From Chthonomonas calidirosea (GTDB lineage: Bacteria; Armatimonadota; Fimbriimonadia; Fimbriimonadales; Fimbriimonadaceae), in the NCBI GenBank assembly GCA_945859975.1, contig CAMAPH010000015.1, forward strand, positions 1 to 62,196: a stretch of DNA of 62,196 nucleotides. The letters are read 5' to 3'. How positions within the stretch are numbered: position 1 is the first letter of the stretch; each line of letters opens with the position of its first letter. Positions 23,883 to 30,169 of this stretch are shown here, piece by piece. The position numbers and the translations under genes were made by a program. Under the pieces are notes generated by a model. It was given only the letters and a program-made list of their open reading frames with translations, had not been told where the DNA came from and did no database searches.

Positions 23883-23956
23883 TGGCTGCCCGACATGGAT
23901 TCGAACCACGATTAACTGAGTCAGAGTCAGTCGTCCTACCATTAGACGATCGGGCA
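23883..23956 (-). tRNA. tRNA-Gln(CTG)
   Basis: Minus strand TGCCCGA...ACTGA-CT-CTG-AC-TCAGT...GGTTCGAATCC...TCGGGCA-G-CCA; 74-nt cloverleaf with encoded CCA. Confidence 0.96.
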
Positions 23957-23985: not shown

Positions 23986-25566
23986 TCATTTCGACTTCAA
24001 CTTGATCGGCCCCAGAGCGGGATCTTTGGTCCCCTTCTTCTGCGTCAGTCGGTCCTTCGAAGCGTTCGGAGGGAAGCCGTTGAACTGTCGCCAGAGCTCG
24101 AAGCCGAGCGGAACCGTGTCCAACATGATCCAGCCGTAGCTCTCCGCTCCGGGGCGCAATAGCTCACTTGATGGCCAAAGCGCATCTTTCCGGCCCGTCG
24201 GTAGCGTGTGCTGTTCCGGAGTGATGACCACCCGGTATCGCGCTGTTCCATCGTCAACGGGATCGATCACCGAAATTCTGCCGCCGAAGGTTCCCATCGC
24301 CGCGCCCGGCATGCCGGTGATCTGAACCGCCGGCCAACCTGCAAATTGCAACCGAACCGGTCGTCCCACTTGAACCCAAGGGACATCGTTATCGGTGACA
24401 AAGAGTTCCACCGCGCGTTCCGCTGTCGTCGGCACGATTGTTGCGAGCACGTCTCCCGACTTCACAATTGTCCCGCCGCCAACGGTGGTCAACCGCGCGA
24501 TGCGTCCCGCGGTCGGAGCACGCACAACCTGCTGGTCGGTTCGAAGCCGTAAGTTTGCAAGTTCATTTTCAACTTTCTGAATTTCCCCGCCATTCTTGGC
24601 GAGGCTCTCCCGGGCCGACTGAATATCCGCCCCAACCCGGCTGATCGCTGCCGCCGTGTCGTTCGTAATCCGGCTTAGGTTAAGCGTGGCATTCGTAACA
24701 TCCCTATCGGCCACCGCAAGATTCGCTTTGGCTTGGTCAACGTTCGCCATCGCTCGCTCGACTTCCAGTTCGGCTTGTGTCTCGCCGAGTCCACCGAGTT
24801 TCAAATCGCGTCGCGCAATCTCAAGCGACTTCTCGGCCCGGACAACCTCGGTCTCGGATTTCACCATGTCGTTCTCGAGAAGTTCCAAGTCCTGCTTCGA
24901 GCGGAGTCCTTTGCCTTCCAAATCGCGAACTCGGTTCAGTCGAAGGCGGACGGTGTCACGTTGCTGCTTTGCGGCCTGAACGGCCTGCTCTCCCTGAACA
25001 ACTCGGTCTGCCTGAATCCGCGCTCGCTCCGAAGCGCTTTGGCGCGCGACCTGGGTCGCAATCGCGAGCGACTTTTCGGACTGACGGACAAGCTGCTTCG
25101 CTGCCTCCACTCGCGATCGAGACTGGCCAACCGCTTGTCGAGCTGCATCGATCGCATCCTGACGGCTCTGTCGTAGTTCCTCTCGCTGTTGATTGAGTTC
25201 GGTAACCCGGGAGTTCGTCTCGGTCTGGGCCAGTTGGGTGAGGTCTCGTTGCTCCGCCAATCGCGCCGTAAGTCCGCGATCTAGGAACTTGCTGTCGACA
25301 TCTTCCAGCACCGCAAGCACATCGCCCTTCTTGACGATCTGCCCCTCCTGAACTCGCCACTCCTTGAGTCGGGCCGGAATCGGTGCTTCTACTGACTGCG
25401 GCCGGTCCATGGCGTTAAAGACAATCACTTGCCCAGTGGCCTCGACCGTCTGCTGCCAAGGCATAAACGCTAGCCCAGCGATCAAACCGACAAAGCCGAG
25501 CAAAATGCCAACGATCCTTCGGCCCACTTTGCGTCGCTTCACGAGTTCTAACGATTGAAGTCTCAT
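23986..25566 (-). CDS. HlyD-family membrane fusion protein
   Basis: N-terminal TM, PWQQ, lipoyl half-motifs (VQEGQIVKKGD; VVRAP..G), long coiled coil, VRLQFAGWPA, PLGFELWRQFNGFPP. Confidence 0.92.
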   Translation of the reverse strand: MRLQSLELVKRRKVGRRIVGILLGFVGLIAGLAFMPWQQTVEATGQVIVFNAMDRPQSVEAPIPARLKEWRVQEGQIVKKGDVLAVLEDVDSKFLDRGLTARLAEQRDLTQLAQTETNSRVTELNQQREELRQSRQDAIDAARQAVGQSRSRVEAAKQLVRQSEKSLAIATQVARQSASERARIQADRVVQGEQAVQAAKQQRDTVRLRLNRVRDLEGKGLRSKQDLELLENDMVKSETEVVRAEKSLEIARRDLKLGGLGETQAELEVERAMANVDQAKANLAVADRDVTNATLNLSRITNDTAAAISRVGADIQSARESLAKNGGEIQKVENELANLRLRTDQQVVRAPTAGRIARLTTVGGGTIVKSGDVLATIVPTTAERAVELFVTDNDVPWVQVGRPVRLQFAGWPAVQITGMPGAAMGTFGGRISVIDPVDDGTARYRVVITPEQHTLPTGRKDALWPSSELLRPGAESYGWIMLDTVPLGFELWRQFNGFPPNASKDRLTQKKGTKDPALGPIKLKSK

Positions 25567-27323
25567 TACTTACCCCCTCCAATCCGGGCCGTACCCGCTC
25601 TGAGGTTTGCCGATAGAAATGGGAACAGTTCCGAAAAGACGGACTTTGCGCTTTGTGCAAGTTGCGTCGGCGAGCCCGACTCGACAATTTGTCCTTCTGC
25701 CATCACGTGCACCTTGTCTGTCCGCAAGATCACGTCCGGTTGGTGAGAGATATCGATGATTGTCCACGGGTTACTAGCTTCGAAGATGTTGTCCAAAATG
25801 CGCTGGGAAATCCGCTCGTCTATTCCGGTAAGTGCCTCGTCCAAAATCAGCAATCGTGGCTTTCCGAGAATGGCCCGAGCGATCAACAAACGTTGCAGCT
25901 GTCCTCGCGAAATGTTTTGGCCACCACTCACGAGCTCCGCTTGAAGCCCACCCGGAATCGCGGCGAGATCATCATCGAGCTCTGCCGTGGTTACGGCCCA
26001 GCGAAGGTCCGCGCTTGAGATCTCATCCCGGCCAACCCGAATGTTCTCCTCAATCGTTCCATGGAAGACATCGGGTTCATATCCCGCAAGTGAGACCTGT
26101 GCGCGAAGCCGCTGCAAGCATGCTTCGCGAATATCCACGTTATCAAAAATCGCGTCTCCCATCGATGGCGACTGGAATCCGCATAGGACGGCGGCCAATG
26201 TCGATTTGCCTGCACCGCTTGCCCCGACCAAACTCACTCGATCCCCGGCGTGGATCGTGAGGTTCAGGCCGTTGAGCACCTTGTGCCCGTTGTCGTACTC
26301 AAAGTGCAAGTTCTTGAGCTCCACCAGAGCTCCCGCAGGGTGAAGCGCCGGCAACTCCTTCCCACCGTCTCGCTCAGTTTCCAGTTCGGAAATCACCGCA
26401 ACCTTATCAAGACCAGCCAAAAGGTCGAAGTACTTTTCCGACTGTCGAATCAGTTTTTCTAACGAGGCAAGGGAAGTGGTAACGATGATCTGAGCAGCAA
26501 CAAGCTGACCAACCGTCAGTGAGCCGTTGAGAACCAACCAGCCACCTGTTCCGAGTACACCCGCCGACGCGAGGGCCGCGAAGGCAAAGAATCCGCCAAG
26601 TTGCCGACGGTTCACCCGGAAGTGAGAGCGCCGCGCAAGAATGTAATTCGTGACCAGCTCATCGGTTTTCGAGGACAAGGATTCCCGATTCGCGTACAAC
26701 TTAAGCGACAAATGACATCGGGCAATATCTTGTAGCCACTCGGCCACGATGTACTTCTGCTTGCTCTCGTAGAGACTGCTCTTGATTCCTCCGTAACCCA
26801 ACAGGATCGTGCCACCGAAGAACAGCACAAGTACGGTTACTGCGGAAAGGAGTAGTCCCGGATTGTAAATGCCAAGCACCAGCACCGTAACGATGGTCTG
26901 GATGAAAGCCGTGAAACCATCGAGCAGTAACTTACTGAGCGCTTTCTGAATCGTGATGACATCAAAGAAGCGATTCACCAACTCGGGCGCATAGTGCGTT
27001 CGCATTGCCGCTGCGCGCACGTTGAGCATGCGGTCGGCAAGCGCCAAAGCCGTATGAGCAAACACCCGCTGCTGCACCGTCTCAACCACGCCGTACTGCA
27101 AAAGCTGCACCATGCCTGCGACACTTAATCCACCTAAAACCAAGAAGGAAAGCAGTACAACCGGCTGAAGAAACATTCCTGCCGCAATGGTATTCACCAG
27201 CGACTGGGTCGCCAGCGGCACCGCAAGCGTCATCACAATGACAACGAGGGTGTAAGTGGCAAGCAGACAAAGGTCCGCTCGCTCACGAGAGACGAGTCGG
27301 AGAAAACGGGTTACTGGTTTCAA
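25566..27323 (-). CDS. ABC exporter, fused TM + ATPase (type I secretion-like)
   Basis: ELVNRFFDV in TMD; Walker A GASGAGKS; signature ISRGQ; LLILDEA; ISH. Confidence 0.92.
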   Translation of the reverse strand: MKPVTRFLRLVSRERADLCLLATYTLVVIVMTLAVPLATQSLVNTIAAGMFLQPVVLLSFLVLGGLSVAGMVQLLQYGVVETVQQRVFAHTALALADRMLNVRAAAMRTHYAPELVNRFFDVITIQKALSKLLLDGFTAFIQTIVTVLVLGIYNPGLLLSAVTVLVLFFGGTILLGYGGIKSSLYESKQKYIVAEWLQDIARCHLSLKLYANRESLSSKTDELVTNYILARRSHFRVNRRQLGGFFAFAALASAGVLGTGGWLVLNGSLTVGQLVAAQIIVTTSLASLEKLIRQSEKYFDLLAGLDKVAVISELETERDGGKELPALHPAGALVELKNLHFEYDNGHKVLNGLNLTIHAGDRVSLVGASGAGKSTLAAVLCGFQSPSMGDAIFDNVDIREACLQRLRAQVSLAGYEPDVFHGTIEENIRVGRDEISSADLRWAVTTAELDDDLAAIPGGLQAELVSGGQNISRGQLQRLLIARAILGKPRLLILDEALTGIDERISQRILDNIFEASNPWTIIDISHQPDVILRTDKVHVMAEGQIVESGSPTQLAQSAKSVFSELFPFLSANLRAGTARIGGGK

Positions 27324-28696
27324 TTTAATCCTCCTTCTGCTGCGCGAAGCGCGGCTTTCGCAATGTGGAACTCGGCGATGACATCAACGAGCCGCGCGGC
27401 GGTTTCGGCCGTCCCGCGCTCTCGCTGGTTGAGCAAGAAGAGCGTCCCATCCCCTTCCTGGAACCGAATAAGTTCACCCAACTCCAACTGTTGGGCCAAC
27501 TCTAGTTCGGCAACGTTGGCCTGAACCCGTTCGTAAGCCCGCCGAAGGGCCGAGGACGCATCTTGAACTTCCGTTTCAATTTCCCGCTTGAGCAACGCTT
27601 CGTCTTGCCGGATCTTTTCAAGCTTTTGTTGGGCCTGCTCAATTTGACCATCCGCCGTTTGTTGGCGAAGCGGAATGGAGTAGAACACCCCCGCCTTTAC
27701 CGTCGCGCCAACTGAGTTTCGGCCGGTATCAATTCCTGGCGAAACAACCACATCCAAACTCGGGCGTCGCTCATTCTTTGCCAGTGCCAAGCTCTGCTCA
27801 ATCACCTTGGTTTCGGCGCTAATTATTCTCGCTTCTGGACGTTGAGCTACGGCTCGAGAGAATGCGGCTTCCAATTCTTCCGCAGTTGGAAGCGCAGGCT
27901 TTGGCAGGCTGCCTGGTGTTCCGATAGGCCCGTTCCAAAGAAAAACGTTGAGTTTCAACAAAGTCTTTTCAATATCTCGCTCTGCCTTTACGAGGCCGCC
28001 TTCGCGTCGACGCACCTCAGTCTCAGCTTCAACGGTATCGATCTTCGGCAAATCGCCACGTTCGTAGCGCTCTCTAATCCCGTCCGCTCGAACCTTCGCA
28101 ATGTTAAGAAGGCGCGCCGCAATCTCTCTTCTCTCGCGTGCCGCCACCCATTCCCAAAACGCCTCACTAGCCTTGAGGCGAACGTTCAGCCGGATCAGCC
28201 GAGCCTCTTCGGTCGCCTGGCCAAACTCAAGATTCGCGACTGCCTCGGCAATCGATTTCTGGTTGACCCCGTTTCCGCGAAGCAAAGGAAGCTTGACTCC
28301 GACAAAGTACTCGCCAAGCTCACCGGTAGAACTTCCCGGCGATTTCACCGAGCCAAAGTTCAATCGCGATCCGGCAAAAACCTTTGCGCCCGACCGCGTG
28401 GTCTGCTCCACCGTGGTTTCCAGCATCTGGGTTGAGAGCGCTTTGCCCCGTGTGCTGGAACTGTTGTAGCGCAAGGCAGACGTGTCCACCATGAGCACTG
28501 GGTCAAAGGCACCGCGCTTCTCCTTGGTCTTTGCGGCGGCAATTTCTACCGCATTTTGTGCCGCACGCAGCTTCGGAAAACCTTGCTCGACCTTGTCCAA
28601 AAACGTCTCAAGGGTTACGTTTTGGGCAGGGAACAGACTATGAATGATGAAGAGAAACGATTCAAATCTCAAAGATGAAGGACCTCCAATGCTCAC
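27320..28696 (-). CDS. TolC-family outer membrane protein
   Basis: GAFDP, LPLLRG, GD.TLFLLNQRE; OEP-like helical repeats; start may be TTG ~28672 after GGAGG. Confidence 0.9.
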   Translation of the reverse strand: MSIGGPSSLRFESFLFIIHSLFPAQNVTLETFLDKVEQGFPKLRAAQNAVEIAAAKTKEKRGAFDPVLMVDTSALRYNSSSTRGKALSTQMLETTVEQTTRSGAKVFAGSRLNFGSVKSPGSSTGELGEYFVGVKLPLLRGNGVNQKSIAEAVANLEFGQATEEARLIRLNVRLKASEAFWEWVAARERREIAARLLNIAKVRADGIRERYERGDLPKIDTVEAETEVRRREGGLVKAERDIEKTLLKLNVFLWNGPIGTPGSLPKPALPTAEELEAAFSRAVAQRPEARIISAETKVIEQSLALAKNERRPSLDVVVSPGIDTGRNSVGATVKAGVFYSIPLRQQTADGQIEQAQQKLEKIRQDEALLKREIETEVQDASSALRRAYERVQANVAELELAQQLELGELIRFQEGDGTLFLLNQRERGTAETAARLVDVIAEFHIAKAALRAAEGGLN

Positions 28697-28699
28697 GCA

Positions 28700-28734
28700 T
28701 AAAGAGCGGCCGAACTAGTCGGTCGCTCTTTTTT
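28700..28734 (-). terminator. Hairpin forming the riboswitch expression platform (probable terminator)
   Basis: AAAGAGCGACCGA-CTAGT-TCGGCCGCTCTTT between aptamer and tolC start; short U-tract on the minus strand. Confidence 0.6.
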
Positions 28735-28735
28735 G

Positions 28736-28822
28736 GAAGGTCTCGCACTCAGATGCGCCGCCGGGGTTTCCCCGTGTTGACGACGACGCAGATTTCCTCG
28801 TTGAAACCGGCTACTCCCCTTC
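28736..28822 (-). ncRNA. yybP-ykoY (Mn2+-sensing) riboswitch aptamer
   Basis: Minus strand GAAGG-GGAGUA-GC ... GGUUUC/GAAAUC ... GCGUCGUC-GUCAACAC-GGG GAAA CCC-C-GGCGGCGC ... GC-GAGA-CCUUC: P1, L1, P2 and P3/L3 match the family consensus. Confidence 0.88.
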
Positions 28823-28876
28823 TAATTCAAGACAAACGATTCGTGAATCAAAAGAGTTCCATGAATATGGACTTTT

Positions 28877-30169
28877 TTAGCCAGTTTCGCGCAACTGAAG
28901 CTCGGTCAAGTAAATCGGCCGCGCGTTGCCTTCCAAAATTCCTTTAGGAACGATGACCCTCTGAACGTCCGGCAGACTCGGGACTTCGAACATTGCCTCT
29001 TGCAGAATCTCTTCTAGCAACGCTCGCAGCGCTCTTGCCCCGGTTTTGCGACGAATCGCTTCTCGGGCGATTTCTCGTAACGCCGAAGTCTCGACAGCGA
29101 GTTCTACGTCCTCAAGTTCAAAAAGATGCTTGTACTGCTTGATCAGCGAGTTCTTTGGCTCCGTCAAAACTCGGATCAGATCGTCCTCCGTGAGCGGATT
29201 TAATGCCGTAATCACGGGCAACCGACCGATGAACTCCGGCAGGAATCCGTATTTCACCAAGTCGTCTGGGACAACGTCCGTCGGCACGATGTCTAGCGCC
29301 TTTTCCGGTGCGTTGCGGAAACCCATCACGGCGCCTTGCTGCCGCCGCCGAACGATTTCCTCAATCCCCTCAAAAGAGCCGGCACAAATGAACAGGATTC
29401 CGGTCGTGTCGATCTGGATGAATTCCTGGTGCGGATGCTTACGCCCGCCATTTTGCGGAACGTTCGCGATCGTTCCTTCAAGGATTTTCAGGAGTCCTTG
29501 TTGCACCCCTTCGCCGCTCACGTCTCGGGTGATCGAAGTACCGCTTTGCGACTTCCGTGCGACCTTATCAATCTCGTCGATGTAAACGATCCCGCGCTCC
29601 GCGAGCTTTTTGGGGTCGGCTCCGTTGATGCTCTCCGCCTCTCGGTAAAGCCGGACCAAAACATTCTCAACGTCTTCGCCCACGTAGCCAGCTTCGGTGA
29701 GCGACGTTGCGTCGGCAATGGCAAACGGAACGTGCATCATCCGCGCCAAAGTCTGAGCAAGCAAAGTTTTGCCCGTTCCGGTCGGGCCCATGAGAAGGAT
29801 GTTGCTCTTCGAAACCTCGGTTCTCCCCGGTGTCGAGTCGAGGGTTCGTTTGTAATGGTTATAAACGCCGACGGCTAAGGCTCGCTTCGCCGCGTCTTGC
29901 CCCACCACGTAGGTGCTCAAAAATTCAACAATGCTTCTCGGCTTTGGTAGACGCGCTTTAGTGAATTCGGGATCAAGGGTCGGGGTCGCAGGGAAGGGAT
30001 GAGAATCGCTATTGCGAGCGCGGGTGCCTTCCTGATCAACGATCTCCGTGCATAGCTGAACGCAATCGGAGCAAATCGCCCCATAGAGTCCGGTAATCAG
30101 CCGCGACACTGAGTCCTTTGATCTTCCACAAAGGGCGCAGAGGTCGCGGCGATCTGGTGCCTGCATCAT
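28877..30169 (-). CDS. clpX: ATP-dependent Clp protease ATP-binding subunit ClpX
   Basis: C4 zinc-binding domain, [47 protein letters not shown]. Confidence 0.96.

Follow-up and report, generated by a model that had tools for sequence, protein, structure and literature searches.

A compact yybP-ykoY-class riboswitch leader as the probable switch of a TolC-like/ABC/HlyD exporter operon in a Fimbriimonadales bacterium

Within a 62,196-nucleotide (nt) stretch of Chthonomonas calidirosea DNA (contig CAMAPH010000015.1; hereafter the window, whose forward-strand positions are used below), we analyzed an 87-nt element on the minus strand (28736..28822) and the three genes behind it, which encode an outer-membrane efflux protein of the Pfam family OEP, an ATP-binding cassette (ABC) half-transporter, and a HlyD-type periplasmic adaptor. 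Judged by sequence and predicted fold, the element genuinely belongs to the yybP-ykoY (Mn2+) riboswitch class, of which it is a compact form with no P4 helix, and it is probably the leader of the exporter operon, over which it would exert ON control. This joins a known riboswitch class to a new class of target, an OEP-ABC-HlyD pump. The ligand, the mechanism, and the cargo discussed below are those that we infer for this system.

The original prediction had read 28822-28736 as a yybP-ykoY aptamer on the basis of P1, L1, and L3; these elements could all be read as claimed, and the same pairing recurred in other genomes. From 5′ to 3′, the element is arranged as P1.1, L1, P1.2, P2, P3.1, L3, P3.2, a 7-nt linker (UCUGAGU), the 3′ strand of L1 (GAGA), and the 3′ strand of P1.1, which corresponds to the three-way-junction form of the class. 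In P1.1, GAAGG (28822-28818) pairs with CCUUC (28740-28736); the remaining helices are P1.2 (28811-28810 with 28746-28745), P2 (28808-28803 with 28796-28791), P3.1 (28790-28782 with 28762-28754), and P3.2 (28773-28770 with 28766-28763). L1 is composed of GGAGUA (28817-28812) and GAGA (28744-28741), and L3 reads GUCAACAC at 28781-28774. The conserved L1 sequence was found as GGGGAGUAGC at 28819-28810, together with GAGA at 28744-28741, in agreement with the consensus of the Rfam model RF00080; the AGA of this 3′ strand is described as invariable (PMC6649816). Likewise, the conserved L3, a one-sided bulge between P3.1 and P3.2 that begins with CGUCAACA, was present as CGUCAACAC at 28782-28774, again in agreement with the RF00080 consensus, and its CGUCA was kept in 12/12 aligned copies. 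No P4 helix or four-way junction was present in the window copy, where the 7-nt linker takes its place. The combined L1/L3 pattern matched once in the 3.1 Mb genome and gave no match in a reversed control. Moreover, the copy in a close relative (G014) showed no differences within the 87-nt aptamer and nine in the other 154 aligned positions.

We then compared this element with covariance models. RF00080 (‘Manganese’; 177 positions, gathering cut-off 45 bits), with which the original prediction expected the aptamer to be recognized, gave no match at the aptamer site at its gathering score, none at E ≤ 10 on 351 bases, and none in a whole-genome search. The same model also missed, at E ≤ 10, a second copy of the element, carried by the window's own genome in front of a TerC gene, and this negative result is therefore uninformative. 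Across 41 related genomes, RF00080 returned one match of 23.6 bits, below its cut-off, corresponding to a TerC-linked copy in G027. In this model, the GGGGAGUAGC region is drawn unpaired, and the 3′ part is long and loosely defined. These data indicate that RF00080 is blind to the compact aptamers of the Fimbriimonadales lineage examined, that taking the lack of a covariance-model match as a refutation would have wrongly rejected the aptamer, and, therefore, that RF00080-based surveys undercount both the class and its targets. In the 41 relatives, a BLAST-type DNA search recovered the near-identical G014 copy only, the short matches being noise. Since MAFFT failed to align the window and G027 copies structurally, a lineage-specific covariance model (R1) was built from the window and G014 copies with a structure written by us, and 151 genomes of the order were searched with it. 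The window element scored 123.1 bits with R1, which detected 12 loci with invariant cores in 11 genomes; with the G027 locus, this gave 13 clear copies. Matches below about 23 bits (L045-L055, L057-L060) were dropped, being without the core motifs. With a second, later model (R2), also run with filters off, the window element scored 89.7 bits, and exactly two copies were found in the window's genome, this element and C12:23619-23711.

The pairing was supported by covariation. In an alignment of 12 distinct copies, 90.9% of the cells were paired, as compared with 70.2% in shuffles (0/500 reached the observed value), although the copies had been fitted to the structure of the model and the counts thus lean towards it; when the partners were slid, at most 51.2% of the cells were paired. 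Sixteen of the 26 base pairs changed on both sides. P2, P3.1, and P3.2 covaried, P1 and the loops being fixed; P1.1 and P1.2 hardly vary and are thus uninformative in this respect.

Most of the 13 copies found at the R1 stage precede genes for TerC or M48 (HtpX-like) proteins. TerC genes stand behind the copies in G027, G114, G054, and G035, often after a small ORF (open reading frame) of the Zn-ribbon or Amphi-Trp type; the G027 copy has the same compact layout as the window element, a terminator that reuses the 3′ strand of P1, and TerC directly behind. The second copy in the window's genome (C12:23619-23711; L202 2670-2762, minus strand) scored 63.3 bits with R2 and is followed by a textbook terminator overlapping P1, an 86-amino acid (aa) Zn-ribbon ORF, and a 332-aa TerC gene. 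A Peptidase_M48 gene lies directly behind the aptamer in four genomes of the family, at the loci of G139, G138, G120, and one locus of G125 (L037 590-1492(-), L038 1641-2489(+), L041 598-1449(-), L042 540-1478(-)). At the other G125 locus (L056), a small Amphi-Trp ORF and a Zn-ribbon ORF follow the aptamer, with no TerC within the fetched stretch. An OEP gene follows the R1 copies of G000 (the window's genome), G014, G091, and G126. An M48 protease is not among the targets named in the consulted portions of a 2021 review (PMC8632737), and the literature found on both subjects concerns only the co-purification of TerC with HtpX. Separately, two kinds of small ORF, Zn_ribbon_TFIIB (84-127 aa) and Amphi-Trp (86-103 aa), were repeatedly seen between riboswitch and TerC (L039 1648-1902, L043 1655-1936, L056 1601-2255, L040 1645-1905, L202 2355-2615), and these may be unrecognized members of the Mn regulon.

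The operon behind the window element was originally described as three overlapping genes, tolC, an ABC exporter, and hlyD, and the Pfam analysis agreed with this description. Gene 1 (27320..28672, minus strand) encodes a TolC-like OEP of 450 aa (Pfam OEP, E 2.2e-36), gene 2 (25566..27323, minus strand) an ABC half-transporter of 585 aa with a transmembrane domain and an ATPase (ABC_membrane and ABC_tran), and gene 3 (23986..25566, minus strand) an adaptor of 526 aa (HlyD_3 and Biotin_lipoyl_2). Consecutive genes overlap, stop with start, by 4 nt (genes 1 and 2) and 1 nt (genes 2 and 3). Gene 1 likely starts at TTG 28672 rather than at GTG 28696, because the latter codon is GTC in G014; a Shine-Dalgarno (SD) sequence, GGAGG, is located ten bases upstream of the TTG.

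Next, the link between aptamer and pump was followed within the order. Orthologues of the adaptor (E ≤ 1e-40) were found in 12/151 genomes, all belonging to one family, and the gene order OEP-ABC-HlyD was kept in all 12 operons. The aptamer is directly upstream of the OEP gene in nine of them, distributed in two genera (G000, G014, G091, G126, G133, G110, G002, G117, and G043); two operons have no aptamer, and one (G001), whose leader is cut by the contig end, is not assessable. Protein identities across the aptamer-bearing operons are 42-55%, and in G126 the orthologous proteins are 42% (OEP), 49% (ABC), and 46% (adaptor) identical to those of the window. The copies in G133, G110, G002, G117, and G043 were found by R2 with filters off. 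Four of these five carry a P4 hairpin and fold as four-way junctions, with a true 3′ end beyond the R2 match; since the P4-less model misaligned them, their 3′ ends were placed by eye and folding. By this comparison, P4 is optional in the lineage, and both forms belong to one riboswitch class. clpX is the upstream neighbor only in the window's subgroup, and in five other genomes the leader is in a divergent intergenic region, where it cannot be the 3′ untranslated region (UTR) of an upstream gene. As the aptamer accompanies the pump where clpX is not its neighbor, the element belongs to the pump, as originally proposed, and the regulatory link between them is well supported by comparative data.

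About 130 nt upstream of the OEP gene, the two operons without aptamer, those of G012 and G019 (L200, L201), retain a promoter-like box, and the place of the aptamer is taken by a different leader, about 120 nt long; this looks like riboswitch loss or replacement. We also observed, divergent from the operon in seven genomes, a gene for a conserved polytopic membrane protein of about 250-280 aa with no Pfam family, ending in ...ERERLRKLFE(S/G)SL(E/D)... (L195 1344-2108(-), L196 1342-2094(-), L197 1359-2108(-), L198 3609-4358(+), L199 1359-2108(-), L200 3772-4611(+), and L201 3829-4641(+)). A homologue of this protein, 25-32% identical, is encoded elsewhere in the window's genome (contig C33).

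Around the window operon, clpX (30169-28877, minus strand) is separated from the first exporter gene by a 204-nt spacer, in which the aptamer starts 55 nt past the clpX stop codon; clpP (30764-30180, minus strand) lies further upstream. A tRNA-Gln gene (anticodon CTG; 23883-23956, minus strand), 30 nt past the adaptor gene, marks the end of the operon. No substrate gene is adjacent, as had been noted originally, the flanks being clpX upstream and tRNA-Gln plus a methyltransferase gene downstream. No conserved neighbors were found beside the orthologous operons in other genomes, where the flanking genes vary.

A promoter-like box precedes the aptamer (28833..28860, minus strand). It consists of GGAAC (28860-28856), a 17-nt spacer, and CGTTTG (28838-28833), and, judged by its position, would put the transcript start a few bases before P1. 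The arrangement G(G/A)AAC, 16-18 nt, (C/T)GT was found at a similar distance before 10/13 riboswitch leaders examined, and a box of this type also stands before riboswitch-less orthologous operons of another family; the loci with such a box, besides the window, are L195-L201, L230, L232, L238, L240-L242, L244, and L246. Its shape is reminiscent of promoters of extracytoplasmic function (ECF) sigma factors. RNA-library contigs from relatives about 90-95% identical (four runs, four studies) cover the stretch from the OEP gene across the hairpin described below and into the aptamer, and all stop, with no loose ends, at 28810/28811, which is 11-12 nt within the aptamer; clpX is covered by a separate contig. 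These libraries were used as contigs, a small share of each, and uncovered parts carry no meaning. The contigs give a weak hint of a transcript starting at the aptamer, consistent with the promoter-like box at 28860-28833.

Between the aptamer and the ribosome-binding site, a strong hairpin is predicted at 28701..28731 (minus strand), in line with the hairpin of the original prediction, and it is followed only by UUUAUG. Its stem is kept in G014 and G091, its loop and A-tract being variable. Further downstream, the box UUGGAGGUC (28681..28689, minus strand), with the SD sequence GGAGG (28687-28683) and no U-run after it, is complementary to GACCUUCCAA (28743-28734), the 3′ strand of P1/L1, and the minimum-free-energy folds pair UUGGAGGUC with GACCUUCC, the 3′ strand of L1/P1.1. 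In these predicted folds, the probability that the SD sequence is unpaired rose from 0.03-0.12 when unconstrained to 0.19-0.63 with the aptamer enforced. Comparable pairing is predicted in four P4-bearing relatives, where it extends from immediately upstream of the TTG start into this codon. This suggests a translational ON switch. With no metal, the L1/P1.1 3′ strand GACCUUCC would pair with the SD box UUGGAGGUC about 50 nt downstream, and the intervening hairpin would keep both strands close, so that ribosome loading would be blocked. Mn2+ bound between L1 and L3 would lock P1.1 and free the SD box, the TolC-like gene would then be translated from TTG 28672, and the ABC and adaptor genes would follow by translational coupling, because their starts overlap the preceding stops.

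Several observations weigh against this picture, beginning with the lack of an RF00080 match at the window site and the operons of G012 and G019, which are kept with no aptamer. The duplex between the SD box and its partner has an energy of -11.6 kcal/mol versus -6.3 ± 2.4 for shuffles, which is modestly better, with 19/500 shuffles as good. Enforcing the aptamer costs about 11 kcal/mol (-51.4 vs -62.4), and any switch would therefore have to act kinetically or draw on tertiary contacts. The GGAGGUC box of G126 lies upstream of the likely ATG by about 70 nt, and the SD-like AGGUGAU of G133 fails to match the P1 strand; thus, SD sequestration is not universal. The GGAAC-17 nt-CGTT box is not enriched genome-wide, with 42 matches against 49 in the reversed control, and the RNA contigs may include DNA, true transcript ends being not readable from them. 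In addition, the mgtA member of the yybP-ykoY class also binds Ca2+ (PMC6649816).

The distribution outside the family adds to these points. At E ≤ 1e-80, adaptor orthologues were found in 36/401 genomes of the phylum Armatimonadota: 8/47 in the window's family (f1, the window's genome excluded), 17/23 in f16, 5/32 in f11, 3/7 in f10, and 2/27 in f8. The names given to homologues of the adaptor place the lineage in Armatimonadota, close to Fimbriimonadaceae; ClpX, with 56-60% identity to five named Armatimonadota genomes, is not decisive in this respect. The aptamer was absent, by pattern and by R2 with filters off, from 20/20 orthologous operons of other families (three of these stretches end short of the OEP gene, and in one no OEP is seen), the best R2 score being 14.2 bits (E 0.26). 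The operon is kept in the other families examined, and its upstream neighbors differ between genomes; in f11 (L234, L235, L237, L243), the OEP gene is divergent from the ABC and adaptor genes and does not lead the operon. Among 120 pattern-match loci listed from across bacteria, 80 of them with full flanks, tblastn detected no OEP or HlyD homologue, and a generic ABC ATPase match was obtained in 4/120, three of them upstream of the riboswitch and one (L100) about 2 kb downstream with 25% identity. The expectation that the aptamer would stand ahead of homologous operons thus held within the order and failed outside the family. Because the 20 other-family operons have no aptamer, the pump is older than its riboswitch link; by this comparative reading, the riboswitch appears to have been recruited to an older, self-contained pump in one family only. 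The core function of the pump, then, does not appear to be tied to Mn, and the original idea of a cargo consisting of Mn, a Mn-chelate, or a Mn-dependent protein is weakened by the same absence.

Two other explanations of the element itself were weighed. It could be a structure or terminator region in the clpX 3′ UTR, or a chance look-alike, rather than a regulator of the pump; its distance of only 55 nt from the clpX stop codon, the silence of Rfam at the site, and the outcome of a promoter search, which returned nothing sigma-70-like between clpX and the aptamer, would fit this view. However, the aptamer accompanies the pump where clpX is not a neighbor, its alignment covaries, it is unique in the genome save for the TerC-linked copy, and in the RNA-library contigs it is continuous with the OEP gene rather than with clpX. 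This explanation is already contradicted by the covariation, the pump linkage, and the divergent leaders, and we consider it extremely improbable. The main rival to a translational switch is that the riboswitch acts on transcription, the hairpin at 28731-28701 or a long composite stem of GACCUUCC and GGAGGUC being a terminator or Rho-entry element overridden by Mn. In every TerC- or M48-linked sister copy, the P1 3′ strand doubles as the 5′ strand of a terminator, and the 3′ strands of these terminators read (G/A)AGGU(C/U) followed by a U-run; the window box resembles such a strand with its U-run decayed to CUUCAUCUUU, and the box is distant from the start codon in G126. Nevertheless, a terminator scan detected no terminator-like site in 28600-29000, the RNA-library contigs bridge both the hairpin and the box, and the box overlaps the ribosome-binding region in the window and four other genomes, so that a transcriptional mechanism seems unlikely to us, and control of translation is preferred.

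The identity of the pump bears on the cargo and the ligand. An OEP, an ABC half-transporter, and a HlyD adaptor in one operon are found here, as in type I secretion systems; nonetheless, the subfamily cut-offs were not reached, and no cognate substrate gene lies beside the transporter. The OEP scored 54.5 bits with the NCBIfam TolC subfamily (cut-off 225), and the adaptor 97.9 bits with type_I_hlyD (cut-off 209). For the ABC protein, the NCBIfam models of peptide/bacteriocin and type I secretion exporters come nearest, and none reaches its cut-off, the HlyB/PrtD/LssB-type models giving 168-201 bits versus cut-offs of 510-726. Its best full-length bacterial matches among solved structures are ComA and PCAT1, and no N-terminal peptidase domain was found on it by Pfam; the only solved relative of the adaptor is the membrane fusion protein of 8dck (chain C, E 4.2e-6). 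The TerC, M48 peptidase, and pump targets all concern the envelope or export, and a peptide, a protein, or an envelope component whose export helps under Mn excess is a credible cargo, though we hold to it only tentatively.

Direct extrusion of Mn2+ or of a Mn-chelate across the envelope, under the same regulation, is somewhat less likely than such a cargo, and we regard it as doubtful. Some ABCB-type exporters carry metal-thiol complexes, and tripartite resistance-nodulation-division (RND) pumps export metals. In agreement with extrusion, no MntP match was found in the window's genome, and the named targets of the class are all Mn or Mn/Ca exporters or Mn-handling membrane proteins in the portions of the review consulted (PMC8632737). 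On the other hand, peptide, bacteriocin, and type I secretion exporters are closest to the pump in sequence, and the pump family occurs widely in genomes where no riboswitch precedes it. The genome also encodes three TerC proteins already, with one of the TerC genes under this riboswitch class. Furthermore, a bare ion in the periplasm can leave through porins. As for the ligand, Mn2+ is predicted for the window aptamer from its class membership. The exporter-linked copies could have the same fold and another effective ligand, e.g., Ca2+ or another divalent ion. L3 reads GUCAACAC in the window and UCAUCAC in the copy ahead of TerC in this genome, GGGAGUAAC replaces GGGGAGUAGC in G133, G110, G002, G117, and G043, and the in vitro affinity of the three-way-junction mgtA member is higher for Ca2+ than for Mn2+ (PMC6649816). 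Yet L1 and L3 of the window agree with the Rfam Mn-family consensus, and Mn2+ activates the mgtA riboswitch far more strongly than Ca2+ (PMC6649816), which leaves a different ligand quite improbable.

The author of the original prediction knew of no characterized type I secretion-like pump as a target of this class. In agreement, no paper linking yybP-ykoY to a HlyD/TolC pump was found in the literature that could be searched, and the gene tables or supplements of the class-defining papers of 2015 (Dambach et al.; Price et al.) could hold an unremarked listing. In the consulted portions of the literature, each target described for the class is a single Mn exporter of the inner membrane or a protein that handles Mn; here, an entire ABC machine spanning the envelope stands behind the aptamer. 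The pairing of riboswitch and pump is conserved in nine species of two genera, and the HtpX-like protease is also a target in sister genomes. We speculate, with considerable reserve, that in this lineage the Mn riboswitch commands a secretion/envelope regulon of TerC, the HtpX-like M48 peptidase, and the pump, and that the pump is either the first ABC-type tripartite extruder of Mn or a Mn-complex through both membranes, or a Mn-gated route for secreting an exoprotein that binds or requires Mn. If such a regulon is true, the yybP-ykoY class governs more than inner-membrane ion export. With this system, the question of which substances a diderm bacterium has to move through its two membranes under Mn excess can be put to a defined, testable case. 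It also connects to recent work tying TerC to the metalation of secreted proteins: the TerC proteins of B. subtilis co-purify with the Sec holotranslocon and HtpX and metalate exported enzymes (PMC10550928).

The pump itself is like the HlyB-HlyD-TolC, PCAT1, and ComA systems in having an ABCB-type half-transporter, a HlyD-type adaptor, and an OEP channel, and it differs from type I secretion and peptide exporters in its sub-cut-off NCBIfam scores, the lack of an N-terminal peptidase domain, and the lack of an adjacent substrate gene. To our knowledge, no riboswitch control is known for type I secretion and peptide-export systems. CzcCBA-type RND pumps are likewise tripartite, trans-envelope, and metal-induced, but their inner-membrane part is an RND antiporter instead of an ABC protein, and they are regulated by proteins, not by an RNA. 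Among riboswitches, the targets of the class listed in the 2021 review are MntP, YybP, YkoY/TerC, and the P-type ATPases YoaB and MgtA (PMC8632737). The E. coli mntP member is described as a Mn-dependent translational riboswitch (PMC11647493) that, unlike the window element, forms a four-way junction (PMC12153347) and controls the inner-membrane exporter MntP, and the E. coli alx riboswitch is without P2 (PMC12153347). The TerC-linked copy in the window's own genome is of the same class and has the same GGAAC, 17 nt, CGTT box upstream; unlike the window copy, it has a classic terminator overlapping P1 and stands ahead of a Zn-ribbon ORF and TerC. The S. pneumoniae mgtA riboswitch, which responds to Mn2+, is similar in architecture: it is a three-way junction with P1 and P2 stacked, P3 docked via L1/L3, and P4 replaced by a short linker, and it is an ON switch for an export gene, as predicted in the window (PMC6649816). 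The linker is UCUGAGU in the window and the A-rich UNAAA in the mgtA form (PMC6649816). Finally, mgtA has a terminator and controls a single inner-membrane P-type ATPase (PMC6649816), whereas the window element appears to sequester the SD sequence and to control a three-gene, trans-envelope ABC system.

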